Virus record (IMG/VR): IMGVR_UViG_3300037245_003639
From: a virus
Direction: 5' to 3' (one strand)
DNA length: 64,000 nt
The position numbers and the translations under genes were made by a program. The notes below the pieces were generated by a model that was given only the letters and a program-made list of their open reading frames with translations, searched no databases and was not told the DNA's origin. Shown here piece by piece: positions 1,406-19,524 of the stretch. The stretch's first letter is position 1; every line of letters begins with the position of its first letter.

Positions 1406-1407
1406 CA

Positions 1408-2520: not shown

Positions 2521-3396
2521 ATGCCCTATGTAGACGCCGAGGTTCGAGAAAATATCAAGAGAAGTGCCATGGAAAACAAACTATACTATCCTGACTATAC
2601 ATATACATCATCAGGGAATATCCGCTACAACATCGAAGATGGGTCAGGGAAGATAGTCAAGTATTATTCCGAGCCCGCGTCCACCAGCACTTATAGTGGA
2701 CTTCACGAAGCCACCTATGGACTTGATCGAGAACTTCACGAAGCCACCTATATACTTGATCGCTCATTAGCCAAGAGTTTCATGGAATCCGCCAGCACCT
2801 CTGCGACTAGTAATGTATTTGATCGTGTATATACCAACATAACTGCGACAGAGGCTTTCAATTGCTATCTCAAATCCGACGATGTTCGCTGGAAGAAGTG
2901 GAAACAGGATGGTTGGGTTACTCAGCAACCTGCCCCTGCTGACAGCATCCGAGAACTTATCAGGGCGCGACAAACTCCGTTTATCGTCACTCATCGAAGA
3001 GTCGTCCGCCCCACCGATACGCGTGAGTTCCGCGCCCGAGAAACCTTATGCCGCATGATTGGAGATAAAGCTTTCCATGATTACGTTAGAAAGGGCTTCA
3101 CCAGCGTGCGAGCGAAATCAGGCCGAGTCTATCAAATCTTCCCTGGCGATAAGATGACAGTCGTTTGGGAAGACGGTAAAGCCATCCAGAATCTCTGCGT
3201 AGACCTGCGTGGCGGCTTTGCTCCAACTGATTCGGTCATTATGCGTCTAATTCTGGTCCAGACCGATGAGGCTGACTTCTGGGCTAAGTCCAACAAATCC
3301 GCTGTTTATACTGGCGCGAACAGAACAAATCAGGCAACAATCGACTTCCGACCGTTGCCTGAAATTTTTGCGGAATTGAAAGCGAGAGCCGCCTAA
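2521..3396 (+). CDS. hypothetical protein, 291 aa
   Basis: ORF; imperfect internal repeat (GLHEATYGLDRELHEATYILDR). Confidence 0.5.
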   Translation: MPYVDAEVRENIKRSAMENKLYYPDYTYTSSGNIRYNIEDGSGKIVKYYSEPASTSTYSGLHEATYGLDRELHEATYILDRSLAKSFMESASTSATSNVFDRVYTNITATEAFNCYLKSDDVRWKKWKQDGWVTQQPAPADSIRELIRARQTPFIVTHRRVVRPTDTREFRARETLCRMIGDKAFHDYVRKGFTSVRAKSGRVYQIFPGDKMTVVWEDGKAIQNLCVDLRGGFAPTDSVIMRLILVQTDEADFWAKSNKSAVYTGANRTNQATIDFRPLPEIFAELKARAA

Positions 3397-4268
3397 GAGA
3401 GCTTGCAGATTTGTTGTCTCAGCGAAGCTGCCTTCTCATAGTCAGCGTCTTTGATAGCTTGATCTTTCTCTGCCATGAGCCGTTCCCGCTTAGCTAATAT
3501 CTTTTGTGCCGTTCCCCGGCGTGCCCTTTTCAACTTTCGAATAGGGCCTTTTTCTTCCCGAGCAGCTATAACTCGTTCAAGTTGGAAAGGTAATGGAGCC
3601 AGAGATTGTTCACTTATAGCGTGTATGAATGTATAATCTTTGGGGTGTACCCGCCCTTCATCTTCAGCCATCATGATGACCTTGAAAAACACATCTATGT
3701 TGAGACTTTGATCTGAACTTATGTCTTGAAGATATTTCTGAACAGTTTCTTCAGTAATGCCGCATTCTTTCTCCATGAGAATTGGGATAAGATCTACGTG
3801 TTTAACATCATAATGATAGAAAGCATCACTGACATCAACTAGTTCCCCACCCAAGTCATCACAACAGAACATCCAACTGTCTTGCATGCTTTCAAAGATC
3901 AGAAGGGCACGAACATTTATTTGATTATCCTTCGAATAGCGGGACTCATCCAAATGGGGTCGCTCACGGTTTGAGAAATCTAGTATCGCCACTTGCTCAA
4001 TAACAGCAGTATATTGTTTGTTATCTAATAGCGTTTGGATTTCTTCTCCGAAAATTGTTCCTTTCATCATACGGCCTAAAGCTACTGCGTTCTTTTTGAC
4101 ATTCTCGAAGATTCGCTCAGTCTCTCTTTCCTGAGTCGTTTTATGGGCCTGCTCTCTAACTTCTTCATTACGATTTTGCAGCATTGAAATAATGGAATTT
4201 TTGAGTTCGTTCAGCTCATCAACCGATAGCTTTTCGAGTTCCATTTTTTCGGTTATATCGATTATCAT
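3393..4268 (-). CDS. UVR-domain protein (C-terminal UvrB/UvrC-like motif DADYEKAASLRQQI)
   Basis: Start chosen at MIIDITEK with SD AGGAG; the ORF track extends further upstream without a good RBS; UVR motif seen by eye. Confidence 0.5.
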   Translation of the reverse strand: MIIDITEKMELEKLSVDELNELKNSIISMLQNRNEEVREQAHKTTQERETERIFENVKKNAVALGRMMKGTIFGEEIQTLLDNKQYTAVIEQVAILDFSNRERPHLDESRYSKDNQINVRALLIFESMQDSWMFCCDDLGGELVDVSDAFYHYDVKHVDLIPILMEKECGITEETVQKYLQDISSDQSLNIDVFFKVIMMAEDEGRVHPKDYTFIHAISEQSLAPLPFQLERVIAAREEKGPIRKLKRARRGTAQKILAKRERLMAEKDQAIKDADYEKAASLRQQICKLS

Positions 4269-4344
4269 TGAGTTCTCCTCTGTTTGCATTATACAGAACA
4301 TTTGATAACAAATGCGCTGGACAGGTGTCTTTTTGAAATCTTCC

Positions 4345-4373
4345 TTGACAATCTCTCTCCAATGCAGTAATTT
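4345..4373 (+). promoter_or_regulatory. sigma70-type promoter TTGACA-N17-TAATTT for the GroES-like gene
   Basis: Hexamers read directly; divergent from the UVR gene. Confidence 0.5.
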
Positions 4374-4407
4374 ACAACTTATGAAAGCAGAGCAAAAAGA
4401 GACCTCC

Positions 4408-4698
4408 ATGGACACCGTAGAGCCCATTGGGCTCCGAGTGTTGGTACGCAAAGACGACGACCGCACGATGAGTAAAGGCGGCATCGTTTTGCCAGGGACA
4501 GTAGAGATTCCAGTCCTGACGGGTCGCATCGTTGCCATCTCAGTCCAAGTCGAGAACGACCCTGATTATCCCATCAGTCGATATGACAAAGTTCTACTCA
4601 ATCCATCAGGTTGCGTCCCCGTGGATTTAGAAGATGGTAATCGACTCTTCATAATCCCTGTGGATGATATAGTCGCTGTCATAAGAAAGGGCTCGTAG
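4408..4698 (+). CDS. groES: GroES/Cpn10-like co-chaperonin (phage gp31-type)
   Basis: About 96 aa; IGLRVLVRK...GGIVLPG...GRIVAISV...DKVLL aligns by eye with the GroES pattern (RVLVK..GGIVLP..GEVVAVG). Confidence 0.65.
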   Translation: MDTVEPIGLRVLVRKDDDRTMSKGGIVLPGTVEIPVLTGRIVAISVQVENDPDYPISRYDKVLLNPSGCVPVDLEDGNRLFIIPVDDIVAVIRKGS

Positions 4699-5147
4699 TG
4701 ATATCGATTACTATACCCTGGTTGAGCTTGGGCTCGCTGTGCGTTGCGGGGTTTGCTGTTGTGATGGCAATTCGCTCGACTAAACTGCATCGTCGGAGAA
4801 AAGCAGCATTGGTCGATGATTGGGACGAGGGCCAGCTAACTCCCACAGACGAACAAAAACACGAAGACCGAGAGATTCTGGGCGATGATTGGATTCTTCT
4901 CTACCACCAACTCCAAGCAGTCACGGGGGACGTAATTCGATATGAGATTTTATACCGCTTCTGCTACAAAATTGTAGAGAAGCCAGCGTATGCCGGCGGC
5001 ACATATGAATCGCCTCAAGGTACATACAAGCTTTCTGCTCTTAGTCTAAGAGGAGTACAGCACATTCTCTCGTTGTTCACATCTAGGCGAGGTCAGGTTG
5101 AAGCCATTCTGGCTAAATTCGCAAAAATAGAAAGACCATCATGTTAG
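4698..5147 (+). CDS. membrane protein (N-terminal TM), paralog of the next gene
   Basis: GTG start overlapping the upstream stop; hydrophobic N-terminus; shared GDDWILLYHQLQ / GEWLPFYQQLQ block. Confidence 0.45.
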   Translation: MISITIPWLSLGSLCVAGFAVVMAIRSTKLHRRRKAALVDDWDEGQLTPTDEQKHEDREILGDDWILLYHQLQAVTGDVIRYEILYRFCYKIVEKPAYAGGTYESPQGTYKLSALSLRGVQHILSLFTSRRGQVEAILAKFAKIERPSC

Positions 5148-5668
5148 CAGAAAGCTTTGCTATCAACCTTACTACCCAACATCTCGTCATCGCAGGCAGT
5201 TGCGTCGGTGCTATTCTGTTGCTTGGCATCACCGCCTGCATTTTCAGATATAAAGTAGTTCGACGACGCATAGCTTCTGCCGAGCAGGTACGAAGAGAAG
5301 AGCGGGATTGGGCGGCTAAGAGACACAGAGAGCAAGTGACCAAAGACGAAATGGAATTGGAGTTAGGAGAATGGTTACCTTTCTACCAACAACTTCAATA
5401 TGTGGAGGGCGTTTCACTGCGTCTGGCGTTCCTAAAGAAAGTCATGGGTAATCCGTCATGTCATACTCGCCGTGGTATACAGCACCTCGACCCAGCAACA
5501 GCCGAAGAATTGCCTAAGCTGACCATGGCAGGCATGGGTCATTTACTCAAACTGTTTCATCACGGATGGTCTGATAGTGGAAGACAACAGGCACAGCGAG
5601 ATGCTGAGGAACTTTTGACGCTTTACGTGGATTTTGATTTTCCTAAGTTTGAAGGAAGTTCCAGATGA
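5141..5668 (+). CDS. membrane protein, paralog of 4698-5147
   Basis: Same architecture as the preceding gene. Confidence 0.45.
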   Translation: MLAESFAINLTTQHLVIAGSCVGAILLLGITACIFRYKVVRRRIASAEQVRREERDWAAKRHREQVTKDEMELELGEWLPFYQQLQYVEGVSLRLAFLKKVMGNPSCHTRRGIQHLDPATAEELPKLTMAGMGHLLKLFHHGWSDSGRQQAQRDAEELLTLYVDFDFPKFEGSSR

Positions 5669-6651
5669 AAGCGAATATCGGGGTGGTCCTGACTGATGAT
5701 GGCAAGGGATTTCGTGCTCTCGCTATTGTGGACGATGTATTCCATCGCTTTGACAATACCACGTCAGACCCAGGAGTCACAGGGCCTGTTACTGGCGTTA
5801 TCTCAGATACCAACTGCTTTCACCGTTCTTTCAGACTGCCACCTATTGAAGCAAGTAAAATTCCTGGCATCATGAGGTTTGAAGCTCACCTACAAATCCC
5901 GTTCGATATGGAAGATGTTGGCTGGGATTATATTGTTGGAAACGATGAAAACGAACCAGACTGGTGTGCTGTGCTCTTTGCGGCTCGGCTCAATCTCATT
6001 GAGCGTCTGTTAGATGATTATCGGCTTGCGGGCATCGAAACAGATTGCATCATCCCTACCAACATTGCACTCTGGAATCTGGTTAAGCATACGGGCATCG
6101 AAGATTCCGTTATGCTCATTTACCCGCAGAGCGCCCCGCAGTTTGCGGGACGCTACAATCACTCGGTAACCGTGGCTGTCTATACAGACTCATATGTCTG
6201 GTGCCGCAATATTCCAATCAACCCGTTTGTTTTGGTTGATACCAGTCTTGATAGTGAGGTGCGAAATAGCGACGCCGCCGACCTCCTGGCCGAGATAAAA
6301 CGTTACATTGGATTCTATCAATCCATCAATCGTGATGAGAAAATTACTTGCGGTTTCACAGTCGGACTACCCGAAACAGTAACCCAATTCTTAGACAGTA
6401 ACCTGATATCCGAAGGCGTGCCTATCGAACCATGGCAACTCAACGAGCAACCTATAGAAGATATTGATGATGCCGTACTGGCTGGACTGGCTCTACACGA
6501 TCATAAGACCAACTTATTACCCAAGAAGAAAAAGTTCCATTTCCCCAAATTCCCATCGCTACCAGAAGCCAAAAGCCCCTTCTGGAGACCAGCAGCTATC
6601 ATCTGGTTTCTGGTGGCCATGTTTCTGACGCTGGTCAAGTTATTTACTTGA
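5665..6651 (+). CDS. hypothetical protein, 328 aa, with C-terminal TM anchor
   Basis: ATGA overlap with the upstream gene; C-terminal AAIIWFLVAMFLTLVKLF. Confidence 0.5.
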   Translation: MKANIGVVLTDDGKGFRALAIVDDVFHRFDNTTSDPGVTGPVTGVISDTNCFHRSFRLPPIEASKIPGIMRFEAHLQIPFDMEDVGWDYIVGNDENEPDWCAVLFAARLNLIERLLDDYRLAGIETDCIIPTNIALWNLVKHTGIEDSVMLIYPQSAPQFAGRYNHSVTVAVYTDSYVWCRNIPINPFVLVDTSLDSEVRNSDAADLLAEIKRYIGFYQSINRDEKITCGFTVGLPETVTQFLDSNLISEGVPIEPWQLNEQPIEDIDDAVLAGLALHDHKTNLLPKKKKFHFPKFPSLPEAKSPFWRPAAIIWFLVAMFLTLVKLFT

Positions 6652-6795
6652 CTGTCCCACCAACGTATTCCATATTTATAGTGTGAGACAAGGGTCTAAC
6701 CCAGACGGTCTTCCCCTGGCCATGCGGTTAGAGGCGGGTTCGCTTTCGGTGCTTGTAGCTCCGAACCCTTGCTTTTTGTTTATCAGGAGACAGTG

Positions 6796-7071
6796 ATGAG
6801 CGCAGGGCTGATTGCTTTGATTTCATTTGGACTGTTCGTTCTCCTGTTTCTCTTCTACGCCTTCAGCGTTCGGTCTCACTACGATAGGTTGCCTGTTTGT
6901 GGAAGATGTAAACACAAGTTGGAAAGAGAAGATATTACCAAAGAGAACGACGAGGGCAAAAAAATCAAAATTGGCTCGCGAGAGTTCTGTCCCGACTGTC
7001 GTGCAAAAGACTATAGAATGGCCGGTTGGTATTACGGCTATGTACCCAAAGGTAGCAGATTCGCCGAATGA
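6796..7071 (+). CDS. small membrane protein with zinc ribbon (CGRC...CPDC)
   Basis: Start at MSAGL with SD AGGAGA. Confidence 0.45.
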   Translation: MSAGLIALISFGLFVLLFLFYAFSVRSHYDRLPVCGRCKHKLEREDITKENDEGKKIKIGSREFCPDCRAKDYRMAGWYYGYVPKGSRFAE

Positions 7072-7080
7072 GATGCAAAC

Positions 7081-7398
7081 ATGGCCCACGAGATTGATCT
7101 CAACGACATCGCTGTCAATACAATAACCAGGGGAGGGCCAATGTCAATCGATGAAGCTGTACAGTTTAAGATAGAACAAACACTCAAACAAAAGAAACTC
7201 ATAGATGAACCAAAATCGACCGACATCGCTAAAGATGAAGCTCGGAAGATCTATGAGGTGTTCAATCACGAAATCGATGAAGTAAAAGCCGACGTTCAAA
7301 AGATGAATGAACGACAAGATCGTCTTTGGGATCAGATATTCACTGCTAAACCCGTGAATACTGGATTTTGGAGTTGGCTCGCTTTCTGGAGAAAATAA
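7081..7398 (+). CDS. hypothetical protein, 105 aa
   Basis: ORF. Confidence 0.4.
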   Translation: MAHEIDLNDIAVNTITRGGPMSIDEAVQFKIEQTLKQKKLIDEPKSTDIAKDEARKIYEVFNHEIDEVKADVQKMNERQDRLWDQIFTAKPVNTGFWSWLAFWRK

Positions 7399-7401
7399 GT
7401 C

Positions 7402-7590
7402 ATGAAATCCGAATCCCCAGACACGTTTGTTCGAGATCATGATGAAGCCATGACAACTATGCTGCGGGTGCTGCCCGATGCATTGTATAACTTCTTCGCC
7501 AAATGCAAGGACAAGGGCTTCTCTGAGGCACAGGCATTAACATTAACTACCGAGTTTTTGCGTTCTCTCTACGGGGTCAAATATAGATAG
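7402..7590 (+). CDS. hypothetical protein, 62 aa
   Basis: ORF directly after the previous stop. Confidence 0.35.
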   Translation: MKSESPDTFVRDHDEAMTTMLRVLPDALYNFFAKCKDKGFSEAQALTLTTEFLRSLYGVKYR

Positions 7591-7836
7591 GCCAAGAATA
7601 TCACGATCTTTGCACTAAGATGTCAGAATGAACGTTATTTATGATATGGAAACTCAAGATCCAGACGATCTCTTTGCTCTGGCTCTTCTGGCTTGGCATC
7701 CCAGTGACGTTACGTGCTGTAACAGTCACCCCTGGCTCCAGAGACCAAATCGGTATTGTCCAAGCCGCCCTAAAACGCCTAAACTGTCATGCTGGGATAG
7801 GCATTGGAGCTTTCAATCCCGACCATGATTCTGAAA

Positions 7837-10800
7837 TTACACCCTGGTCCTGAGTAACCAATTGCTGGCAGCAGCGGCCATATGTTGTTGAGCCCAATGC
7901 TCCATTGCGATGCGGGATCGCAATTCTTCTTGGACTTTCTCCCATTGAAGTATCTGAGCCACTTGCAGTTCTTTGCGAGTTGATTTATTCTGTCTTACCT
8001 TCTTGACATATGCTTTGTCAGCATTTTGAATGTTCTCAGAGATATGTCGTTTCTTCTGGACCAAATTGAAAATCACTTCGTCCTGAGTATTACCCATAAC
8101 CATATAATGGTTTGTCACAGGTAACTGGCTATTGACTCGGTGAGCCCGCCCTTCTACCTGGTCTGCATCTTTAGGTGTCCAAGAAATATCGTTGATGATA
8201 ACGTTCTGAGTGACGTTGGGAATATCTACTCCAGTCCCTGATGAGAGAATAGTCAAAACCAAAGCGTACATCGTTCCATTTGGAGTTTTGAACTCACGTA
8301 TAGTATGCTCTTTATGGACATCTCCTCCCATGGCCAATCCAACCTCATATGGTTCAATAAGTTCTTTAAGTTTAGTTGCAATCGCTTCTGCGGTGTCTCT
8401 GAAACAACTAAAGACGATTACCTTTTGTCCCGCAGATATAAAGCTAAACGCTTTATCTAAAGTCGCTGGGATCTTTGCGTCTGCAATGGCCATGCGTCGA
8501 GCAGTCAAACGAACAAGAGGTTCGTCTTTATCTTTGTTACTTTCCCGCATCCTGATATACCGACGTTCAGTGGCCAATTCAAGGTCACGTTGTTCCTGAG
8601 GGGTGGCTTCAGACTTTTCTACGTTGGTGGTTAGTTCGGGGATGTTTTCGTTGACTTCTTTTTTGGTTCTCTTTCTATAAACATCGGTCAAAACCAGAGA
8701 AGCTTTGAGAGCGGTAAACTTTTTCATGCGCTCAAAGACAATTTGCTTCAAACTGTTCATGTCGTTATCAATGGGTTCTTCTTCAGAAATTTGCAGAGCA
8801 ACAGCAAATTTATCATCCAAAGATAGATGGTCGAAATCAGGTCGCAGACGTTTCACAACATGACGCAAGAAGTCGCGGGTATTAGCAGGGTCCACTCGAA
8901 GATCTTCCCCCCGCATTTGGATTGTTTTGGAACCAGTATATTGGCGGAGAAAACCCGCCCGTCCCAGATAACCCAGTGGATGCCCAACTGCTAACAACTG
9001 ATTATGTAAGTCGTCAGGAGTATTTGCTGCCGTGGTTGCCGACGCGCCCCATTTGAATGGGATATTCTTGCCCGCTTGGATAACATTGCGAGAAGTAGCA
9101 GCATTAGGGTTCTTCACTAGATGACATTCATCCAGTATCATTACGTCAAAGTTGAGATTACGCATCGCTGCCAATCGTTCTTCTGCGTTAGCTCCCGCAA
9201 TTTTGGTATAGGACATGACCAGCCATTTGGTCATATCTGTCACCTGGTTCACATCTGTTGCGATGGTATCACAGAAGCCCCGCTGTTCAAACTGTTGTAA
9301 TTGACCTTCGTCAGCCCCAGTTGTAGCCAGAATACGCAAACCAAACTGCTCAACAACTGAAGCGGGCGTAAAGACCAAAACTCGACCAGTCGCCAGTTGT
9401 TGATTCCAGCGATTCTTTTCTTTAGTTCTCATGTCGGCAGCAACAATCATTTGCTCCGTCTTGCCAACACCAGGTTCATCACCCAAAATCGCGGACTGTC
9501 GAGAATATAACCAACGAACTCCCTCGGCCTGTAAAGGACGTAAACGATATGGCTCCTCATTGGGTTTATGGAATTCGTATTCCATCACTTCGTTATTGAA
9601 CTGTTCTTCATCAGGTACGTATAAACCCGTCTTCTGATCTCTCAATCTGTGACGAGCCGCACGAGTTTTGTAGTATTTGTCCAAAACTCCATTCAGAATC
9701 TCAGTAACTTGAACGTGTTTGCTGTTTCGCAACTCAGACCCAACTTTCAACACCAGGTCGTCTAAATTACTGGAGACCTGTTTTATGTTCAGAAGAGTCT
9801 GTAGATCACGGTAATTGCCATAAGTCCCTTTGAGATAGAGTCCCTTTTTCATGGCATAATGAGTGCCCGCAGGAGTAATCAACTCCTCACGTTTAGTGGC
9901 AATATCACGCCTACCTTTTGCCCGAGCCTCTTCAGCCATTGGACGAGGTTTGGCTCCCATGATTGGGAAAGCAAAGTTTACTAGATCCTCAATCACTGCT
10001 TTCAAATCTTTGCGTTGTTCTAGTCCTTCAAATGGAATGAAAATGTGGTAATCAGTATCGACTGTGGCATTCTCAAATATCAGATCAAATTGTAAACGAC
10101 GACTGGAAGCAGACTCTTCTTCCAGTTGAATTTGGTCTATAACATCAGTGTTAAATCCATCAGTCTCAAAAACGGATTTGAGCAAAGGGATATCGCTGAC
10201 TTGCAGGTTGGTCAAAACGACTTCGTTGGGGAAACGCTTATCCCGAACAACAGTTACACCTTTTGGCCCCAATTGCTCTCGTATCTTCTGTTGTATCGGA
10301 TTGCTCTCTGCTTTGAATGCTTTCGGATATTCTGGTAGATGACTGCTCCAAGCAATCCCGTAGTTGATATAATCAGGAGTAGATTCTACCACTCGGAAAC
10401 TGGTTACTCTCTGCTGCCGACTTTGAAAAGTCTGAGTTGCCTGCTCTTGTCGTTGCTGAGCCGCCTGCTCTAACTCCTGGGTTATCCTCCGAACATCCGC
10501 TTGTTGGTCCGCCATCGGATGGAAATACATAGAAAGTCCCATCAAAACATCATAAACACTGTTTGCAGATATGAGAGTAGTGCCACTATGATTTAGAACA
10601 TCCTGGGTGGCTGGGGATGTTTGCAGCTTCTGTAAGGCAGACCTAGCTCGATTATCTGTTTCTTCGGGAGTCCTTGACATAATATCTTGCAAATAGCCTT
10701 GAAGGGCTCGTGTAGAAGCGGAAGAAATATATACCTGTAAACTCGGGTCAAATGCCAACTTCATTAGGGCGTTCACAGGATTCTCCCACGTAGGGGCGAT

Positions 10801-10839
10801 AACTGTCTTTGCCATTCGAACTGAATGCGTCCAAACCAT
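7837..10839 (-). CDS. SNF2-family (DEAD/DEAH-box) helicase, about 1000 aa, with an unrecognised N-terminal domain of about 440 aa
   Basis: Walker A LGDEPGVGKT, motif II ILDECHLVKN, helicase-C motif QVEGRAHRVNS; TTG/ATG start ambiguity at 10839-10847. Confidence 0.85.
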   Translation of the reverse strand: MVWTHSVRMAKTVIAPTWENPVNALMKLAFDPSLQVYISSASTRALQGYLQDIMSRTPEETDNRARSALQKLQTSPATQDVLNHSGTTLISANSVYDVLMGLSMYFHPMADQQADVRRITQELEQAAQQRQEQATQTFQSRQQRVTSFRVVESTPDYINYGIAWSSHLPEYPKAFKAESNPIQQKIREQLGPKGVTVVRDKRFPNEVVLTNLQVSDIPLLKSVFETDGFNTDVIDQIQLEEESASSRRLQFDLIFENATVDTDYHIFIPFEGLEQRKDLKAVIEDLVNFAFPIMGAKPRPMAEEARAKGRRDIATKREELITPAGTHYAMKKGLYLKGTYGNYRDLQTLLNIKQVSSNLDDLVLKVGSELRNSKHVQVTEILNGVLDKYYKTRAARHRLRDQKTGLYVPDEEQFNNEVMEYEFHKPNEEPYRLRPLQAEGVRWLYSRQSAILGDEPGVGKTEQMIVAADMRTKEKNRWNQQLATGRVLVFTPASVVEQFGLRILATTGADEGQLQQFEQRGFCDTIATDVNQVTDMTKWLVMSYTKIAGANAEERLAAMRNLNFDVMILDECHLVKNPNAATSRNVIQAGKNIPFKWGASATTAANTPDDLHNQLLAVGHPLGYLGRAGFLRQYTGSKTIQMRGEDLRVDPANTRDFLRHVVKRLRPDFDHLSLDDKFAVALQISEEEPIDNDMNSLKQIVFERMKKFTALKASLVLTDVYRKRTKKEVNENIPELTTNVEKSEATPQEQRDLELATERRYIRMRESNKDKDEPLVRLTARRMAIADAKIPATLDKAFSFISAGQKVIVFSCFRDTAEAIATKLKELIEPYEVGLAMGGDVHKEHTIREFKTPNGTMYALVLTILSSGTGVDIPNVTQNVIINDISWTPKDADQVEGRAHRVNSQLPVTNHYMVMGNTQDEVIFNLVQKKRHISENIQNADKAYVKKVRQNKSTRKELQVAQILQWEKVQEELRSRIAMEHWAQQHMAAAASNWLLRTRV

Positions 10840-10867
10840 AAACAAACCTCATTTACTGATTTTCTAT

Positions 10868-10896
10868 TTGACATTACGGCCTAAATCAGGTAGTAT
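10868..10896 (+). promoter_or_regulatory. sigma70-type promoter TTGACA-N17-TAGTAT; leaderless (ATG 7 nt after the -10)
   Basis: Hexamers and spacing read directly. Confidence 0.5.
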
Positions 10897-10902
10897 CCTG
10901 CT

Positions 10903-11157
10903 ATGAGTGATATAACAGCAGAAGCCCTGCGCCAGTACAGAGTCATCTTGCACAACGATGACGTAACCTATTTTGTGCGGGCAGCTTGCGCTGTATCTCG
11001 TATTATGAACTGGCTTCTCTACAAAGCCCATCAACATGTCGAAGATGCCCAGTCGAACGGACAATCAGTCCTTTGTATTATACATTTTGAAAGAGCAGAA
11101 CAGATTCAGCAACTACTCGAAGATGAATATCTCACTGTGACTCTCGAAGCCGCATAA
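10903..11157 (+). CDS. clpS: ClpS-like Clp protease adaptor
   Basis: 84 aa; YRVILHNDDVTYFVRAA and LTVTLEAA resemble the ClpS core (YKVILVNDDYTPMEFV ... LLCTLEKA). Confidence 0.65.
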   Translation: MSDITAEALRQYRVILHNDDVTYFVRAACAVSRIMNWLLYKAHQHVEDAQSNGQSVLCIIHFERAEQIQQLLEDEYLTVTLEAA

Positions 11158-11173
11158 TTTTTGCTCAATTCGC

Positions 11174-11201
11174 TTGACAACAGTCCCAGATTTGTTACAC
11201 T
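11174..11201 (+). promoter_or_regulatory. sigma70-type promoter TTGACA-N16-TACACT driving a long ORF-less transcript
   Basis: Read directly; no ORF for about 400 nt downstream. Confidence 0.4.
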
Positions 11202-11207
11202 GTCAAT

Positions 11208-11560
11208 ATCGAATGAGCGCTTGTCGATCTGCCTGTCAGGTTTGAGACCATCCGTATCCTGCCAGAGCAGTATTAAAACGGGTTCCTGTACGTGAGCGTT
11301 GTTGCTTGGCCACGCTATAGTATCACAAGTAACCGTATGGATTAACGGGAGTTTCTTTTACCGATGTTCTTTCTCCCGCCAAATACGTAACAAAAGAACC
11401 TGGATCGACACAGTTTTGCTACCGACGCTTTTCTAGTGTCGATTATAATAAAGCGTGGACCGAACGCAGTTTTTCGCCATCGTTTTCTCTAGCGTCGGTT
11501 ACTATAAAACGAGGAGGACTGGCCTGCGGCCTAAACGCCCCCGGTCAGTCTCTTTTTATT
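11208..11560 (+). ncRNA. candidate structured non-coding transcript or long leader (about 350 nt) with two roughly 50-bp direct repeats
   Basis: Promoter at 11174-11201, terminator-like hairpin plus T-run near 11512-11560; no ORF; repeats at 11406-11455 and 11461-11511 carry complementary segments (accgacgc / gcgtcggt). Confidence 0.3.
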
Positions 11561-11575
11561 GACAGACCGATACTC

Positions 11576-11604
11576 TTGACAATCTCGTCATTTCTTCTTA
11601 CACT
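11576..11604 (+). promoter_or_regulatory. sigma70-type promoter TTGACA-N17-TACACT for gene 11622
   Basis: Read directly; SD GAGGAG follows. Confidence 0.5.
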
Positions 11605-11621
11605 CTGCATGAGGAGATTCA

Positions 11622-12770: not shown

Positions 12771-12782
12771 TTGGAGGAACAC

Positions 12783-13250
12783 ATGGCAACGGCATTAACC
12801 ACCGATGAAGCTGTAATGGACCTATTGGTCAAAGTAGAACAGAAAAAAGAAGAGATCAAAAAGGCCAAGAAAAAGCCTCAATGGAAAACCAACTGCTCAA
12901 TAGGAGCAGACGCAGACCCCAAATCATCGCATGACCGCAAGAACATCCAAGTCATGCGAACAACGCAAGAAGTAATGGAATGGTATGCCTTCCTATTGCA
13001 AAAACGAGAATTCCTCAGGCAAGCTGCTGACGAACTTGGCATCACCGCCACCGAAGCCGACGCGGGATTGTCTTGGATGGCATATTCCATCCAAGACTGG
13101 CTCGCAGACCTCAAATCTCGGGTTGCTCAACTCACTATCGAGCAAAAACAGGCCGAGGTAAAAGCCCTGGATGCGCGGGTCAACAAACTCGTAAGCCCCG
13201 ACCAACGACGCTCCATGGAACTGGAAGCATTACAGCAAATCCTGGGATGA
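12783..13250 (+). CDS. hypothetical protein, about 155 aa
   Basis: Start MATALT with SD GGAGGA. Confidence 0.5.
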   Translation: MATALTTDEAVMDLLVKVEQKKEEIKKAKKKPQWKTNCSIGADADPKSSHDRKNIQVMRTTQEVMEWYAFLLQKREFLRQAADELGITATEADAGLSWMAYSIQDWLADLKSRVAQLTIEQKQAEVKALDARVNKLVSPDQRRSMELEALQQILG

Positions 13251-13283
13251 TGTTTTAGCACATCCCTTTTTCCCGCATTCCTA

Positions 13284-13313
13284 GGGACGCTCATTTTGAG
13301 CGTCCCTTTTTTT
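13284..13313 (+). terminator. rho-independent terminator gggacgctc-atttt-gagcgtccc followed by T7
   Basis: Perfect 9-bp stem plus T-run right after gene 12783-13250. Confidence 0.7.
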
Positions 13314-13317
13314 GCTC

Positions 13318-13346
13318 TTGACAGCCCTGTTATATTTCCTTACACT
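13318..13346 (+). promoter_or_regulatory. sigma70-type promoter TTGACA-N17-TACACT
   Basis: Read directly; SD AGGAGA and ATG at 13368. Confidence 0.45.
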
Positions 13347-13367
13347 GTTGTACTCAGGAGAAACAAC

Positions 13368-13772
13368 ATGAATGGTGTCACGTTCGAGATATCCGAAGAG
13401 CATCTGAAAATTGCGGGTGGTGTTGCTATCGGATTGCTCGTAATCATTTGCACTATCTTCGGAATCATATGGAAGAAGAAATCCAAAGCCCGTCACGAAA
13501 AGGAAGTGGAGAATTGGTATCGTGAACGTGTCAAGAAAATCTCTTCTGGGCGTCTCTACAAATTCAAAGGGGACCGAGATGGTGATCTCATCTGCCCTCT
13601 TTGTGCTCAATACACCCGTGATTATCACAAAGTCTATTTTAGAGAAGAAGATGAAGGCCGCTCAGATGCAATCGAAAATGGCTTGTCTCTGTTCCGCTGG
13701 CATGCTCGTTGTAATCACAAAACCTGCGGCTATGAATGGGTGATGAAGAGCCGTCTTGAGGAGACAATATGA
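13368..13772 (+). CDS. hypothetical protein with one TM and a Cys/His cluster
   Basis: Start MNGVTFE after the SD. Confidence 0.45.
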   Translation: MNGVTFEISEEHLKIAGGVAIGLLVIICTIFGIIWKKKSKARHEKEVENWYRERVKKISSGRLYKFKGDRDGDLICPLCAQYTRDYHKVYFREEDEGRSDAIENGLSLFRWHARCNHKTCGYEWVMKSRLEETI

Positions 13773-14140
13773 ATGGAAGTGCAAAGGGTGCAAAGGTCAC
13801 CAATAACCATCTGTACGATGGGTTCGCCGCAAGTCATAGAGGATGCACCACGGATACTCCCAACAACGCACTATCGGGTGATCGACCAAGTTAACGATAT
13901 GAAAAGAGAAGGTCGATGGCCCATCAAGTAACGGGTGCATTGCGACTACGACTATGGTGGATAAAGCCAACAAGGCACTCCAGGAATACCCAAATATTAT
14001 CCCCCCCGATATATTTGACGACGATGACCCTTTGCTGGTAGAATGCGTAAACTTATTGATGGACACAGGTTTCAGCTTTGCCACTGCGTGCAAAGGTGCT
14101 GTCGCTCTCAAACGAAAATATGACAAGTAGGAGTCCCATC

Positions 14141-14398
14141 ATGGAAGTCTCGGTTACATCTGTAATGACCTTCGGTATCGTTTGTTTCATTGGGGCATTG
14201 GTCTTTGGCGGGGCTGCTTCACTCCTCTTCTCTAAGGGCCATAAGTTAGTCATCCACAATTACCAATGCCCCAAAGGTGAAGAGCACAGTAACGCCGGAC
14301 TTTTCGTCTTCGGCGGCATTTGTTTTGTAATGGCCGCTGGTTCCATCGTGGGCATCTTCGCGACCGGTGTAAAGATATTCAAACAATTAACCTTCTAG
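14141..14398 (+). CDS. small membrane protein, 85 aa
   Basis: SD AGGAG; two hydrophobic segments. Confidence 0.45.
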   Translation: MEVSVTSVMTFGIVCFIGALVFGGAASLLFSKGHKLVIHNYQCPKGEEHSNAGLFVFGGICFVMAAGSIVGIFATGVKIFKQLTF

Positions 14399-14405
14399 GT
14401 GTATC

Positions 14406-15173
14406 ATGAACATCACCCGACGAAAATTCATAAGCACTGCTGCCACGGCTGCTGTAGCCGTGGTTCTCCCTCCCGTTTTGGCTAAACCCAAAAGTGTCCA
14501 AAAACAAATAAACGAATCTTGGGACTGGGCTAAAAAGCATGATACCGTCGTCAGCCTCCAACGCTTCCAACGCCCACCTATCCAAGTCTATTGTTTAGGC
14601 ACTGATGACAACCCTGTCACTTCGCTCGATATCCAAAACGTCATGCATTGGATAAAAGAAAATGCGAAGAAAGACAAAATCATGTTGGGGCGAGAACGAG
14701 ATACAGGGGTAACTACTTACGGACGTATTCCAGTCTACTACGAGTTCAAACCATGGTCAGGAGTCCAAAACATTCACTGCCGTCATTGCGTGATTGAGTG
14801 TCCTGGCCATGGTTTCTTGCAAGTCCGCATCGGAAGCGATAATCGTCCCGCTCAAAAGGAAGATTTGGAAGATATCGGAAGGCACTTAGCCGATGTTTTA
14901 ACTGATCCAGAATTGTCGATTGTCACGCACCATAATTTCGAAATGAGTTGGCATGAAACTCAGTATCCAGATACTTATGATGCGTTTGTCGTGCCTCATG
15001 ATTATCCTGATGTTCCCACTGATCGTGATATAGCAGGCGTTTGGCCTGGGAAATATATCTATCACGAAAGAAACCGCATTGTAACAGTAACCAAAACCTC
15101 GCCGGACGCGACGCGACCAACTCGGGCGGAATTCAATTTCCTTGTCGTCACAGATGGCGGTCACATCGCCTAG
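14406..15173 (+). CDS. exported protein with twin-arginine (Tat) signal peptide
   Basis: N-terminus MNITRRKFISTAATAAVAVVLPPVLA. Confidence 0.55.
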   Translation: MNITRRKFISTAATAAVAVVLPPVLAKPKSVQKQINESWDWAKKHDTVVSLQRFQRPPIQVYCLGTDDNPVTSLDIQNVMHWIKENAKKDKIMLGRERDTGVTTYGRIPVYYEFKPWSGVQNIHCRHCVIECPGHGFLQVRIGSDNRPAQKEDLEDIGRHLADVLTDPELSIVTHHNFEMSWHETQYPDTYDAFVVPHDYPDVPTDRDIAGVWPGKYIYHERNRIVTVTKTSPDATRPTRAEFNFLVVTDGGHIA

Positions 15174-15185
15174 GAGTAGCAGACG

Positions 15186-16124
15186 TTGCCGCAAAAACGG
15201 GTACATTTGGGTTTCACTCTTACGTGCAAAGATGACGGAGAGAGAACGTACAAACTCACTGATGATCCCCAACTGCTGCTGAATCCCGATTCGATTCTTC
15301 TCAATATGGACAGCTCAGGTGATTACGACGGCAGCCACGGCCCGTTTAATGAAGCTGTAGAGATTTTGCGGGCCAGAGTCAACCAGGGCTTGGAATCTTA
15401 CCAAGATCGAGTCACAACCAAATGGGAAACCGTCACAGTTCATGATAAGCCGTTTCTGAAACAAACTGTCGATGCTCTGCGGACTGTGGCGGTTGAAAGC
15501 AAACGGTTGGTCCTGACATCTAAGTACCAATACCTCGCACAAGATCTGGCCTCAATAGATCCGTCTTTTTACGTTCTAACAGGTAAGAAGGCGGAACGAT
15601 TTCTTTCCAATGGTCAGTCTTCTCGTGATCTGTTCGTTCTCCGATACGATGAACATCGACCGGCCCGCCTCAAACGAAATGCCCAGAAGCGCAAAGCTAA
15701 ACCTCCCCCGCCTCCTAAGATTTTACTCTCCATACATATTTTGCCCTTGGCCAACGCCCTAGATCACGTATTCAAACAGCAAACGGGTTTATACGTGCAT
15801 CTGGGAGCTACTTCTATGTATTCCAACGCCAACAAAGCCGGTACCATTGAGAACATGTGTCACGCCGTGCAAACCCTACGAAAACTCGGTATTAAGCCCC
15901 GCACTCTCAAAGACAACATCGATGCGAAATTGAAAACATTCTGGAGTTACGCTCTCAGCAGCAGCGAACGCGAGTCAAAAACCCGTCCTTGGCGGTCATT
16001 GGATGCTCTGGCAGAATATGTACGAAAGGCCAAGCCCCGGGACGACCGTGATATCGCTTACAAAAAATTGGTTGCCCAATTGAAGAGGATGTGCAATGTC
16101 AAAAAGCCCCACGCCGCTCGTTGA
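15186..16124 (+). CDS. hypothetical protein, 312 aa (TTG start assumed)
   Basis: ORF; SD AGGAG upstream of the TTG. Confidence 0.4.
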   Translation: MPQKRVHLGFTLTCKDDGERTYKLTDDPQLLLNPDSILLNMDSSGDYDGSHGPFNEAVEILRARVNQGLESYQDRVTTKWETVTVHDKPFLKQTVDALRTVAVESKRLVLTSKYQYLAQDLASIDPSFYVLTGKKAERFLSNGQSSRDLFVLRYDEHRPARLKRNAQKRKAKPPPPPKILLSIHILPLANALDHVFKQQTGLYVHLGATSMYSNANKAGTIENMCHAVQTLRKLGIKPRTLKDNIDAKLKTFWSYALSSSERESKTRPWRSLDALAEYVRKAKPRDDRDIAYKKLVAQLKRMCNVKKPHAAR

Positions 16125-16731
16125 AGTAACACCCATCATCACCGATGTTCAAGTCACAGGCGAACACGTCGTGGCTTTGCTGGTCTCACAGGTGGACGAG
16201 AACATCTTGGCTCGTGAGCAAGAAACCATCGAGAAAATCGATATTCTGAACAAAGCGACAGGGATGCTGGATGAAACCAACGCTAAAGAACTAAAGGATT
16301 TCGTCGCCAAAAAAGAACAGCAACTTAAGAAATCTGGAATTCTTGACGCGCTCAAGCAAATAGGCGTGTCAAAACCTTCAATCACGGTTGCACGGGATTT
16401 GAGGCATGATTTCTCAGGTTTCTTCTTTGTGATTACCATTGGCAGTGACCACGAACGTACACTGACCTATTTCGTCAAGACCACCATACCCAAGAAAATG
16501 ACCGAGATCACAGCCCAGATTAAAGTGAATCAGGCCGAAGCGGATGCGTTGACCACTTACTTGCTCGATCTACGTTCGTATCGCCAAAATAGTATGACTG
16601 GGCTCGAACGTTGGGCGCGGGGACAAATCGCAGCATCAGCTCTGAAACGAGCGGGCGGTGACATGGCCCAATTCGTCAAGCAACTGGAAAGCATTATGCC
16701 GAAGAGCCTCAAAAATCTGCTGACCGAATAG
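16096..16731 (+). CDS. hypothetical protein, 211 aa
   Basis: ORF overlapping the upstream gene end. Confidence 0.45.
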   Translation: MSKSPTPLVEVTPIITDVQVTGEHVVALLVSQVDENILAREQETIEKIDILNKATGMLDETNAKELKDFVAKKEQQLKKSGILDALKQIGVSKPSITVARDLRHDFSGFFFVITIGSDHERTLTYFVKTTIPKKMTEITAQIKVNQAEADALTTYLLDLRSYRQNSMTGLERWARGQIAASALKRAGGDMAQFVKQLESIMPKSLKNLLTE

Positions 16732-16743
16732 GAGTAAAACTTG

Positions 16744-17526
16744 ATGAAACAGAAGTTGATCTGGCGGGCCACCATGCGGACGGCGTCGATTCTGGCGATG
16801 GAGAAGTTGGTGAAGGCGCAGGCCGTGGACAAGCTGATTCTGATGAGTTTGTCGCTGGCGGAGGAACCCCAGCTCGATGGACGTATTGGTCGTATGGTTC
16901 GGCTGTGTCACGAACACGAGGTGGAGGTCGAGCACGGACGTTGGCTCTATCCCTGCCGGAGGGGTTTAGCAGGTTGGAATTACCGTGACATTTTCGATCC
17001 AAAGTTCTACTGGCAGACGATCGATCGGCTTATCCACGAGGCGAACGGGCTCGGAGCGGACGGGACGGCGCTCGATACGGAACCATACGCAAACAGTCCC
17101 TTAAAGGCTGCGCGTCGGGACTGGGATTCGTTCGCTGAACGTGCAATGCAAGAAGCAGTGCAGGCGGCAGTAGACGATGGGGCTTGGGTTGATACTCTTA
17201 TGCCGGCGCGAGCTAAGCCCGAAGATGGCGCGAGTATCTACAATGCGACGACTCCGCTGGGAAATGTGCTCGCAAAGTACACGTACTGGTACTGGGGTGC
17301 GAAGTATGTTCCTCCGCTGGCGACGCGCCCGTTCAGCATGCCGTCGATTTACGTCACACCTGACGGCAAGCACCCCGGCGGCAGTACGCGACAGACCTGG
17401 ACCTGGAAATTGTTACAGGACGAACTGGCCTGTCCATGGTTGCAAGACTACGATGAGGTCGCGATCTATCCCGGAGATTTCGACAATCAAATAGCAATCG
17501 CGGAGCAACTAATCAATCTGAGTTAG
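16744..17526 (+). CDS. hypothetical protein, 260 aa; locally GC-rich
   Basis: ORF; visibly higher GC than neighbours. Confidence 0.45.
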   Translation: MKQKLIWRATMRTASILAMEKLVKAQAVDKLILMSLSLAEEPQLDGRIGRMVRLCHEHEVEVEHGRWLYPCRRGLAGWNYRDIFDPKFYWQTIDRLIHEANGLGADGTALDTEPYANSPLKAARRDWDSFAERAMQEAVQAAVDDGAWVDTLMPARAKPEDGASIYNATTPLGNVLAKYTYWYWGAKYVPPLATRPFSMPSIYVTPDGKHPGGSTRQTWTWKLLQDELACPWLQDYDEVAIYPGDFDNQIAIAEQLINLS

Positions 17527-17547
17527 CGAGGACTGGAATCATCACGC

Positions 17548-19524
17548 TTGTTATGCATGGATATATTCATGAACGACCTTCTCAAAAGAATTGCAGAAAC
17601 CAAAGAAACTCTCAGCAGAGTCGGCACGAATCTCAAGAAACGTTTTGTCGGTATCGACGAAATGATAGATTCCGTGCTGGATAACCTGGAAGTTTGGCAC
17701 GCAATGCCCGAATTGATAGGTCGGCCTGTGATCATCAATTTATGGGGCATGACAGGTGTTGGTAAAACAGATTTAGTTCGACAATTGGCCAAAGAACTTT
17801 CTATGGTGGACCGGTTTGTCGAGGTCCAGATGGCCAACAAATCTGACAGTTCGTCTACTTCAATTCGGTCGATTCTGGCCCACTCATCTATCGAGCCTGA
17901 TGCCAAAGGCATTCTGTTGCTCGATGAGATCCAGCGTTATCGTACTGTGGATCAAAACGGCGTTGAAATTCATGATCACGACTTCCAAGATGTATGGATG
18001 CTACTCAGTGATGGATGTTTTGCTGGTGATAGTTCCGCCAAATCTGAGATTGTTGACCTGTTGTTCGGAGACCTATACTGGCAACAATACGAAAACCGAC
18101 CAGAGCCAACTACTGCCAAGGCCAAAAAGAAAAAAAAGGAAGAAGCAGCAAAAGCAAAACGCATCAAATACAAGCAATCCATCTGGGCTGCTCGTCATCT
18201 CAAACGAACGCTACGTTTAACTCAAAGCGTCGAAGAGATTATGATGTGGGACGAGGAACAGAAATACCATATGCTCACTGATGCTTTGAACAATCAGGAC
18301 ACATTCGAGGGTGACTCCTATCAACAATTGCTCATCTTCATCTCAGGCAACATTGATGAAGCTTATAGCATGGCGTCCAATACCGATGATGCGGATATGG
18401 ATGCTGATATCTTCTATGAATTCTCCAAGAGAATCAACTTCGTCTCCATTAAACGAGCCCTGTGTCGGCGATTCAAACCCGAACAAATAGCTCGTCTCGG
18501 CAATACCCATGTTATCTATCCGTCGCTGTCCAAAGCATCCTACCAGGAAATCGTCAATCGTAAAGTTGATGAAATCACACAGAAGATGCAAGAACATGGG
18601 ATGAGAATTACAGTGGATCAGTCTGTCAAAGACTGCATCTACCGCAACGGTGTTTTCCCGGCTCAGGGCGTCCGACCAGTGCTCTCCACGGTCAATGCTA
18701 TGCTTGGAAACGCTGTGCCTGGATTCTTCATGAAAGCCGTAGAACATGGAGTAAGTGAATTCCTTATTACCTGTGATGATGAATCTCAGGAACTTGTTGT
18801 CGCTATTGGTGAGCACGAATTTCGCCGGACAATAGAAGGCGGTATCGACAAAATCAAGAAAGAGCACGATATTCAACAAGTCCAACTTACGGCAGTCCAT
18901 GAAGCCGGGCATGCCGTGGTCTATGCCGTTCTTACTAATTTGACCCCGCTGCAAATCATTGCAAATACCTCAATGGAGAACAAAGAAGGATGGGTAGGTA
19001 TACATCATTCATCATTCTCCAAGGACAGTATCCTGCAACGTGTTTGCACCAACTTGGCAGGCATGGTCGCAGAGGATTGGGTATTTGGAGACCCAGATCG
19101 AACAGCCGGATGTTCTGGTGACGTTTATTACGCAACCAACTTGATTGGGTCGCTCATTCGTCAGTGGGCTATGAATGGCAGAGTTAGCTATAGCTCCAAT
19201 AGACATCAGGACTGCAACCCGGTCAACTTCGATATAGAAAGCACAAACGCAGAAATAGAACGGATAATGTCTGAGCAAAAAGAGCGAGCGAAAGATTTGC
19301 TCGAACGTCATCGCCCATTATTCGAAGCGACAGTTGTGGCACTCAATGATGGAACACAAGGCAAGCTCGTGGGAGTTATTTCGTCTGTGGAATTCCAAGC
19401 AATAGCAGCACGGTTTGGCACGGAATTGGAAATCCAGAGTGCCAAGGAAACCCCCTATGCCGACTATATGGGAATGTTCAAACAGTTTACTAAAAGCGTT
19501 GCCGCCGAGGAAGTCGCAACATGA
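17548..19524 (+). CDS. FtsH-like ATP-dependent metalloprotease: divergent P-loop ATPase domain plus peptidase M41 domain, no TM anchor
   Basis: Walker A GMTGVGKT, Walker B ILLLDEIQ; C-terminal HEAGHAVV ... GMVAEDWVFG ... YYATNLIGSLIRQWAMNG matches the FtsH M41 zinc site and C-terminal helix by eye. Confidence 0.7.
   Translation: MLCMDIFMNDLLKRIAETKETLSRVGTNLKKRFVGIDEMIDSVLDNLEVWHAMPELIGRPVIINLWGMTGVGKTDLVRQLAKELSMVDRFVEVQMANKSDSSSTSIRSILAHSSIEPDAKGILLLDEIQRYRTVDQNGVEIHDHDFQDVWMLLSDGCFAGDSSAKSEIVDLLFGDLYWQQYENRPEPTTAKAKKKKKEEAAKAKRIKYKQSIWAARHLKRTLRLTQSVEEIMMWDEEQKYHMLTDALNNQDTFEGDSYQQLLIFISGNIDEAYSMASNTDDADMDADIFYEFSKRINFVSIKRALCRRFKPEQIARLGNTHVIYPSLSKASYQEIVNRKVDEITQKMQEHGMRITVDQSVKDCIYRNGVFPAQGVRPVLSTVNAMLGNAVPGFFMKAVEHGVSEFLITCDDESQELVVAIGEHEFRRTIEGGIDKIKKEHDIQQVQLTAVHEAGHAVVYAVLTNLTPLQIIANTSMENKEGWVGIHHSSFSKDSILQRVCTNLAGMVAEDWVFGDPDRTAGCSGDVYYATNLIGSLIRQWAMNGRVSYSSNRHQDCNPVNFDIESTNAEIERIMSEQKERAKDLLERHRPLFEATVVALNDGTQGKLVGVISSVEFQAIAARFGTELEIQSAKETPYADYMGMFKQFTKSVAAEEVAT

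Follow-up and report, generated by a model that had tools for sequence, protein, structure and literature searches.

Do genes for protein folding and proteolysis that lie close together in a phage genome form one system? The question is raised by a 64-kb stretch of DNA (hereafter, the window) of the IMG/VR virus record IMGVR_UViG_3300037245_003639. In this window an initial annotation had recognized four genes for proteostasis components, encoding a UVR-motif protein, a GroES/Cpn10-like co-chaperonin, a ClpS-like adaptor and an FtsH-like protease, and had proposed that they might act together on the folding and proteolysis of host proteins. Our analyses indicate that these are probably four independent accessory genes, divergent homologs of bacterial protein-quality-control components, and not one system.

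Identity and genomic linkage of the four genes

Domain calls were judged against the curated gathering thresholds of Pfam, and orthology against the equivalog cut-offs of NCBIfam. Profile searches, which the initial annotation had named as the test of its assignments, supported all four at the level of Pfam. The UVR motif (PF02151) scored 23.4 bits against a threshold of 21.5, over residues 262-287 only of a 291-residue protein, and Cpn10 (PF00166) scored 53.2 bits against 21.1, over profile positions 2-93 of 93. ClpS (PF02617) scored 31.9 bits against 23, and the 658-residue FtsH-like protein matched Peptidase_M41 (59.7 against 29.9), AAA (PF00004; 29.3 against 21.2) and ClpB_D2-small (PF10431; 32.3 against 21.9). 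The ratio of non-synonymous to synonymous substitution rates (dN/dS) was 0.13-0.21 for the ClpS-like gene and 0.10 for the GroES-like gene; for the UVR and FtsH-like genes dS was saturated, with dN values of 0.14-0.43. All four open reading frames (ORFs) are real genes under purifying selection. None of the four proteins reached an NCBIfam equivalog cut-off, and for this reason we regard them as superfamily members rather than as orthologs of bacterial housekeeping genes.

At least four transcription units are needed to accommodate the four genes. The UVR gene is on the minus strand, and the GroES-like gene belongs to a separate operon. Past a helicase gene on the minus strand comes the ClpS-like gene, served by its own promoter, and the FtsH-like gene is part of a long operon on the plus strand. 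A strong intrinsic-terminator-like hairpin (13283..13307, plus strand; an 11-bp stem with seven G-C pairs and a T run), after which there is a promoter at 13318-13346, parts the ClpS side from the FtsH-like operon.

Co-occurrence was assessed by hidden Markov model (HMM) searches of 10 kb on each side of 60 viral FtsH-like loci and 15 viral ClpS loci, the latter set being derived from a pattern scan with a narrowed alignment, as the first alignment was too diverse. With this phage excepted, no ClpS gene was found within 10 kb of the FtsH-like gene at any of the 60 loci, nor was a Cpn10 gene, other than a non-significant match in contig L058 (E 0.0068). The reciprocal search identified an FtsH-like gene at none of the 15 ClpS loci, and there was no overlap between the IMG/VR contig names of the two sets. 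Searches by tblastn and HMM for ClpS, GroES, the UVR protein and neighboring window genes in 62-80 loci likewise revealed no linkage. The conserved neighbors of the genes also differed, as ClpS was accompanied by an SNF2 helicase, GroES by the UVR gene and a downstream PilM-like gene, and the FtsH-like gene, in other phages, by RNA ligase and a Dda-like helicase. The UVR/GroES pair was the sole conserved adjacency among the four genes.

These data bear directly on the initial proposal of joint action, read as a coordinated module with which the phage redirects folding and proteolysis in the host. In one version of such a module, the ClpS-like protein would feed substrates to the FtsH-like enzyme and the GroES-like protein would redirect GroEL. 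The module would find support in the close spacing of the genes, all inside 16 kb where consensus sigma-70 promoters are dense, and in their enrichment among the few annotatable genes. It is opposed by the separate transcription units, by the lack of co-occurrence at the 60 and 15 viral loci with no contigs in common, by the different conserved neighbor of each gene, and by the FtsH-like protein itself. The approximately 60 residues ahead of the Walker A motif of that protein aligned to the start of ClpB D2, so that it has no Clp N-domain and the canonical docking mode of ClpS is unavailable. Based on these findings, we consider it very unlikely that the four genes act together, and it appears improbable in the extreme that N-degron substrates pass to the FtsH-like enzyme from the short-tailed ClpS of the phage.

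There are, nonetheless, several points that weigh against reading these as four independent accessory genes with the activities proposed below. Three of the approximately 12 genes of the window that could be annotated relate to protein quality control, and the location of all of them in one 16-kb stretch rich in sigma-70-type promoters makes early co-expression, and some functional interplay, possible. The co-occurrence test addressed local 10-kb flanks, not whole genomes, and pattern-based scans miss divergent relatives. In addition, the window represents 64 kb of a genome of approximately 403 kb, and a phage ClpA, ClpC, ClpP or GroEL could lie elsewhere within it. Lastly, the FtsH-like protein has no aromatic residue where Hsp100 D2 domains have GYVG, which renders processive unfolding by this protein uncertain.

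The gene set as such is unsurprising, since chaperone and Clp components of jumbo phages have already been catalogued by comparative genomics. Iyer et al. (2021) listed ClpS and HSP10 in jumbo phages (HSP10 in groups 2 and 3) and had already put forward the idea that ClpAP is retargeted (PMC7824862). Phage Atu_ph07 has seven Clp-family genes including ClpS (gp708), along with DnaJ (PMC6102473) and Hsp20 (PMC7824862); the Clp components named in it are ClpS, ClpA, ClpB, ClpX and ClpP (PMC6102473, PMC7824862). The remark in the initial annotation that no described phage combines genes of this kind is consequently outdated. Chaperones and Clp proteins are absent from a 2026 jumbo-phage review, and from its silence these phage components have seemingly been without experimental study so far. 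The GroES-like and ClpS-like genes add divergent new members to gene classes already known from phages, and the FtsH-like family is the only moderately novel element of the four. That family, a soluble Hsp100-D2/M41 protein found in bacteria and huge phages, is the part worth following up. The domain identities, conserved catalytic residues, lack of a membrane anchor and lack of genomic linkage are observed; all of the activities, partners and targets proposed for the four proteins are inferred.

Architecture and distribution of the FtsH-like protease

The FtsH-like gene (17548..19524, plus strand) encodes a soluble AAA+ metalloprotease composed of a Hsp100/ClpB-D2-type ATPase and an M41 peptidase. 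Three start codons were considered, TTG at 17548 (658 residues), ATG at 17557 (655 residues, as in protein P0001) and ATG at 17569 (651 residues, as in contig L063), and a start at 17557 or 17569 is probable. The protein has a Walker A motif (17746-17769), a helical insertion (residues ~160-255), a ClpB_D2-small lid (residues 327-387) and an M41 peptidase domain (residues 443-596) with its HEAGH motif at 18898-18912. An AlphaFold2 model of the protein had a mean predicted local distance difference test (pLDDT) score of 81.8.

The label "FtsH-like" given in the initial annotation holds true for the M41 protease half of the protein, but not for its ATPase, which is Hsp100-D2-like. The family profile scored -2.4 bits on the FtsH ATPase domain, in comparison to E-values of 1e-13 to 1e-10 on the D2 domains of ClpE, ClpC and ClpB. 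The protein scored 56.9 on the FtsH equivalog model TIGR01241, whose cut-off is 600, and AAA_lid_3 was absent in the Pfam searches. Alignment to ClpE, ClpB and ClpC recovered Walker A and B, the Asn of sensor-1, the Arg finger and the G-x-R-P of sensor-2, which are features of an Hsp100 D2 domain; the D2-small domain, a further such feature, was likewise present. Across 60 viral and 79 bacterial sequences, the Walker B residues D126 and E127, sensor-1 N268, Arg finger R316 and sensor-2 R376 were invariant, as were H451, E452, H455, E509 and D525, which represent the HExxH motif and the downstream acidic residues of the peptidase. The Walker A motif was invariant in a 30-sequence alignment. Ahead of sensor-1 there is a helical insertion of approximately 95 residues with a Lys-rich stretch. 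Judged from its sequence, the protein is not a true FtsH, but an Hsp100-D2-type ATPase fused to an intact M41 peptidase.

The initial annotation had also described the enzyme as soluble, and this was confirmed: no hydrophobic segment was detected (maximum Kyte-Doolittle value of 1.24), and the same was true for 26 of 30 family members. The FtsH family is described in the literature as membrane-anchored (PMC9020784). The FtsH proteins of phages PA5oct and MIJ3 (PMC6892783) and of MaAM05 conform to the canonical type: they have two membrane helices, an FtsH_ext domain, AAA scores of 145-158 bits and AAA_lid_3. By contrast, the window protein lacks transmembrane helices and FtsH_ext, scores 29 bits for AAA and has ClpB_D2-small as its lid. 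It also differs from the Hsp100/Clp proteins ClpB, ClpC, ClpE and ClpA, in that it comprises one ring module only and lacks an N-domain, D1 and GYVG, has the ~95-residue insertion, and is fused to its own peptidase rather than docking on ClpP. There is no aromatic residue at positions 95-120, the loop which holds GYVG in Hsp100 D2. Among the 79 bacterial members, Phe occurred 25 times in one column of this loop and 32 times in another, and aromatic residues there were fewer in the viral members. A structure search of BFVD returned only canonical giant-virus FtsH proteins and Clp ATPases, with low TM-scores. The product would be a cytosolic, probably ring-forming, ATP-dependent zinc protease.

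The family is widespread. More than 2,600 proteins were matched in a 5.8-billion-protein set, although ordinary FtsH proteins may be among them. A scan of IMG/VR with the single window protein found nothing, and it was an alignment-based scan that identified the family on 60 contigs, many of which were 200-550 kb in length. In species-representative bacterial genomes the family was found at 553 places, including isolates of Variovorax, Ramlibacter, Polaromonas, Acidovorax, Ottowia, Thiothrix, Arcicella and Neolewinella. In a neighbor-joining tree the window protein was placed inside an all-viral clade of 33 tips. The bacterial context is one of housekeeping genes in the two isolate genomes examined: genes for ATP synthase gamma, an HflX-type GTPase and dihydroorotate dehydrogenase are nearby in the Arcicella isolate, and one for an HrpA-type helicase (DEAD/HA2/DUF3418) in the Variovorax isolate. 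Clustering of the neighbors of the gene revealed no proteostasis partner in the viral loci and no universal partner in the bacterial loci.

Our search of the literature found no description of a soluble Hsp100-D2/M41 architecture, nor of a relevant phage FtsH beyond that of MIJ3. We tentatively suggest, as a possibility falling just short of an even call, that the family is an unrecognized class of soluble AAA+ protease, with an Hsp100-D2-type motor, an M41 peptidase and a Lys-rich helical insertion. Genes of this class would sit in a housekeeping setting in many Bacteroidota and Comamonadaceae, and one clade of huge phages would have passed such a gene on vertically from early times. A membrane-free fusion of this kind would add a new architecture to the few ATP-dependent proteases of bacteria, and its spread over 553 bacterial loci and at least 60 viral contigs is reason for characterizing it.

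The initial annotation had envisaged that the enzyme degrades host factors. It might instead serve the phage, in the assembly, maturation or turnover of phage proteins. Vertical inheritance in the all-viral clade (at least 33 sequences) is consistent with this, as is the observation that well-conserved peptidases of jumbo phages usually process virion proteins (Iyer et al., PMC7824862). However, the genes near the FtsH-like gene in other phages are of the replication type (for RNA ligase and for an intein-containing Dda-like helicase) and those in the window are ORFans, so that neither setting is a structural module, and the housekeeping context of the bacterial homologs suggests general cytosolic proteolysis. 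We consider a role in serving the phage unlikely on balance. A defense-system role for the family was rejected, based on the housekeeping context in bacteria and on a PADLOC search in which there was only a weak, partial match to DolB (33.5 bits, over the N-terminal 85 residues); the ClpS-like, GroES-like and UVR proteins had no match among the PADLOC models.

Several genes near members of the family deserve mention. In the window, a gene for a DUF3307 membrane protein (19521..19952, plus strand; Pfam DUF3307, 37.7 bits) has a start that overlaps the stop of the FtsH-like gene, and is kept downstream of it in the close relatives L002 and L063 only, not across the wider family. In contig L007, the Dda/RecD-like helicase near the FtsH-like gene (13849-16410) has an intein with a LAGLIDADG homing-endonuclease domain. 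The related contig L002 encodes homologs of the PP-binding and NADAR proteins of the window at 7688-7924 and 8389-8877, approximately 5 kb downstream of its FtsH-like gene.

The ClpS-like, GroES-like and UVR-motif proteins

The ClpS-like protein (10903..11157, plus strand; 84 residues) consists of a ClpS core preceded by an 11-residue N-terminal extension. A three-sequence ClpS profile identified 168 ClpS-sized proteins among 1.84 billion representatives, and a search of the PDB with the ClpS profile returned ClpS chains only (from Plasmodium, Arabidopsis and E. coli). The protein is a divergent one, as it scored 25 bits against NCBIfam equivalog cut-offs of at least 107 and had no tblastn match in cultured phage records.

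The pocket and docking residues of the protein were compared with those known for E. coli ClpS. Residues N34, D35, D36 and T38 of E. coli ClpS correspond to N18, D19, D20 and T22, and E79 is kept as Glu63. The E. coli residue H66 is replaced by Gln50, and by Asp in the close homolog P0123; the gate residue M40 is Phe24 and K84 is Ile68. In three close homologs N18, D19 and T22 were invariant, and D20 was either D or N. The window protein resembles ClpS and the ClpS proteins of jumbo phages (such as Atu_ph07 gp708) in its ClpS domain, and retains the NDD-x-T motif and Glu63. It differs from the E. coli protein in its extension as well as in the His66-to-Gln and Lys84-to-Ile replacements. The extension has 11 residues before the core, compared to 26 in E. 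coli, and the Pro-Pro junction is absent. Other viral ClpS-like genes have room for approximately 19-39 residues, making this extension the shortest seen.

Most likely, the ClpS-like protein would dock on an unfoldase of the ClpA or ClpC type, at the N-domain, and re-programme that enzyme, which would be the host's unless the phage encodes its own. The outcome could be hand-over of N-degron substrates, or mainly a blocking of the unfoldase that spares phage proteins. In E. coli, the ClpS extension must enter the ClpA pore for substrate hand-over, and ClpS also inhibits the degradation of ssrA-type substrates (PMC9663308). This requirement, together with the short extension of the window protein, makes a mainly inhibitory role a serious alternative, in which the protein occupies the N-domain of host ClpA or ClpC and suppresses the degradation of other substrates, phage proteins included. 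An extension of 11 residues with no proline junction would be too short for pore entry, and the Gln (or, in a close homolog, Asp) in place of His66 points in the same direction. The invariance of N18, D19 and T22, with D or N at position 20, suggests on the other hand that binding of N-degrons still matters. Furthermore, the length requirement comes from E. coli ClpAP only. Weighing these points, we lean against a mainly inhibitory role, while regarding it as a real contender to docking with hand-over of substrates. If a naturally tail-less ClpS does inhibit, it would be a possible phage-made inhibitor of the host N-degron/ClpA pathway.

The initial annotation had noted a strong, leaderless promoter at the ClpS-like gene, and this was borne out as a sequence pattern. 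A sigma-70-type promoter (TTGACA-17-TAGTAT; 10868..10896, plus strand) ends 6 nt before the ATG at 10903, and the arrangement TTGACA-17-TA(G/T)(T/A)(A/C)T, 6 nt, ATG retained its spacing in five related sequences, which fits a leaderless mRNA. The divergent neighbor of the gene encodes an SNF2-family helicase (7837..10845, minus strand; SNF2-rel_dom and Helicase_C in Pfam; phrog_62, 1.4e-60). The same divergent pair was present in contig L171, and contigs L169 and L172 had a cut, unannotated minus-strand ORF at the position of the helicase. Two ClpS-like genes in tandem were seen in the IMG/VR contigs L075 (10001-10647) and L076 (488-1134). In close relatives, a gene for a 345-residue class-II aminoacyl-tRNA-synthetase-like protein (tRNA-synt_2) is directly downstream of ClpS (L168, 383-1420; L170, 387-1424); there is no such gene at that position in the window.

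The GroES-like gene had been annotated at 4408-4698, and the gene and its domain stood up to analysis but the start did not. Position 4408 is an internal Met, giving a 96-residue product. The ORF is open from 4312, and homologs in two related contigs begin at a Met equivalent to the ATG at 4381, so that the product is likely of 105 residues (4381..4698, plus strand). With either start the Cpn10 domain is whole. The protein matched phrog_3188 (co-chaperonin GroES) and, in the PDB, T. thermophilus GroES (E 1.4e-6). The tip of its mobile loop, KGGIVLPGT, aligned to KGGIVLPDT of T. thermophilus GroES in the GroEL-GroES complex (4v4o) and was kept in homologs, which fits the binding of a GroEL-type chaperonin. 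The sequence is otherwise very divergent: its best NCBIfam score was 36.4 bits against a cut-off of 109, with all 12 GroES models under cut-off, and identity to the GroES proteins of E. coli and B. subtilis was approximately 24-28%. No tblastn match was found among 50,697 phage records.

Like bacterial GroES and the phage co-chaperonins (T4 gp31 and PHROG 3188), the window protein has a full-length Cpn10 domain, and its GGIVLP tip is identical to that of T. thermophilus GroES. T4 gp31 has an extended loop and lacks the roof hairpin; the window protein resembles ordinary GroES instead. Its gene is set apart by an operon shared with genes for membrane proteins and for a PilM-like protein. Encoded at 4698-5147 and 5141-5668 (both plus strand), in genes that follow the GroES-like one with abutting or overlapping ends, are two membrane proteins of similar appearance, each recognized as single-pass by its hydrophobic segment. 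They are followed at 5665-6651 (plus strand) by a gene for a PilM/Amuc_1101-like protein with a C-terminal membrane helix, of a family with the actin/Hsp70 fold; its matches to PilM_2 and to NF045709 (Amuc_1101_fam, 3.1e-13) were both sub-cut-off. A similar order of Cpn10, one 167-residue gene and a PilM_2-like gene was found in contig L081 (3033-4830), and in contig L082 Cpn10 was followed by a 175-residue gene. The GroES-like protein would most likely cap a GroEL-type chaperonin to fold phage proteins. Pfam scans identified no Cpn60/GroEL gene in the window, and the partner would be the GroEL of the host unless one is encoded elsewhere in the phage genome.

Back to back with the GroES-like gene is the gene for the UVR-motif protein (3393..4268, minus strand; 291 residues), which is mostly helical in its N-terminal region and has a UVR hairpin at the C-terminus (EKDQAIKDADYEKAASLRQQ; residues 262-287). 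The divergent orientation of these two genes, described in the initial annotation, was retained in two related contigs (L081 and L082, with proteins 46-56% identical). Five homologs of the UVR protein had 46-56% identity to it, and the motif was kept in four of the five. An AlphaFold2 model was unreliable overall (pLDDT 56), other than in the C-terminal hairpin (81-84). UVR motifs occur in UvrB and UvrC, in the middle domain of ClpC and in McsA; with UvrB/UvrC the window protein shares the above-threshold hairpin alone. The remaining 260 residues had no match in Pfam, PHROG, NCBIfam or PADLOC, and no nuclease, ATPase or kinase-activator domain was found. The designation of this protein as a proteostasis component therefore loses its footing, as its basis is a 26-residue motif and a conserved position by the GroES gene. 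The UVR protein is probably co-regulated with the GroES-like gene.

Phage origin and remaining content of the window

A phage origin of the window is well supported, and we regard it as huge-phage DNA. Its 120 non-overlapping candidate ORFs cover 91% of the 64 kb, and Pfam matches are sparse among them. For the larger ORFs these were an SNF2 helicase, a RuvB-like ATPase, an ArdC-like zincin and the weak PilM match, and the sole matches for the 82 small ORFs were NADAR (6e-53), an acyl-carrier-type PP-binding domain and a zinc ribbon. The PHROG matches were the phrog_62 helicase, phrog_2475 (1.8e-69), which has homologs in 184 phage records, phrog_6186 and an anti-restriction family. A megablast of positions 3000-20000 against the 50,697 phage records gave no match. 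The Logan contig L063/L166 (23.9 kb) was near-identical to the window, and its independent gene calls agreed with ours; for a 403,172-bp contig there is a record of the identical ClpS-like protein.

The rival explanation is that the region belongs to a bacterial chromosome or other mobile element and that the genes are ordinary cellular proteostasis genes. The 553 matches to the FtsH-like family in bacterial genomes, isolates included, would be in keeping with that, as would the fact that no capsid, portal, terminase or other virion gene was found in the 64 kb. However, the proteins scored far under the NCBIfam equivalog cut-offs (GroES, 36 against at least 96; ClpS, 25 against at least 107; FtsH, 57 against 600), few ORFs had a Pfam match while PHROG families were present, and the FtsH-like protein clustered with IMG/VR sequences and not with bacterial ones. 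A bacterial origin is, in light of these data, hardly credible, and the window is probably a huge-phage region of the early or host-takeover type.

The window is rich in promoters. We identified 25 near-consensus sigma-70-type promoters (TTGACA, 16-17 nt, TA[CT]ACT-like) on both strands, compared to 0.86 expected from shuffles. Examples are those at 11174-11201, 11576-11604 and 13318-13346 on the plus strand and at 28296-28268, 30144-30117, 30617-30590 and 31535-31508 on the minus strand. Most of the 25 are followed by a leader of approximately 15-25 nt with an AAGGGAG-type ribosome-binding site, and several have the block 'ctaagtaggtcaaagcaagggag' in common. At four promoters there was an ATG exactly 7 nt past the -10 hexamer (38029, 33639 and 61603 on the minus strand; 10903 on the plus strand), a spacing that suggests recurrent leaderless mRNAs. 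Position 38029 is the start of ORF 37823-38029; 33639 is internal to ORF 33289-33891, whose true start may consequently be later than annotated.

A number of other features were noted. At 1055-2518 (plus strand) there are four successive genes of 116-131 residues, with equivalent runs of 111-121-residue genes in L063, L081 and L082; no family match was found for the window genes, which look like a tandem paralog array. Contig L166 extended the left side of the window by approximately 4 kb of the same phage, the only flank recovered, and encodes there (234-1737) an ADP-ribosylglycohydrolase, a cold-shock-domain protein and ribosomal protein S21. On the minus strand, ARAGORN called a tRNA-like gene at 31129-31210 with a two-base anticodon, "(cg)". 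The ArdC-like zincin (28276-29274, minus strand; MPTase-PolyVal and phrog_7245, anti-restriction protein) belongs to a class that is also present in group 3 jumbo phages according to Iyer et al. (PMC7824862).

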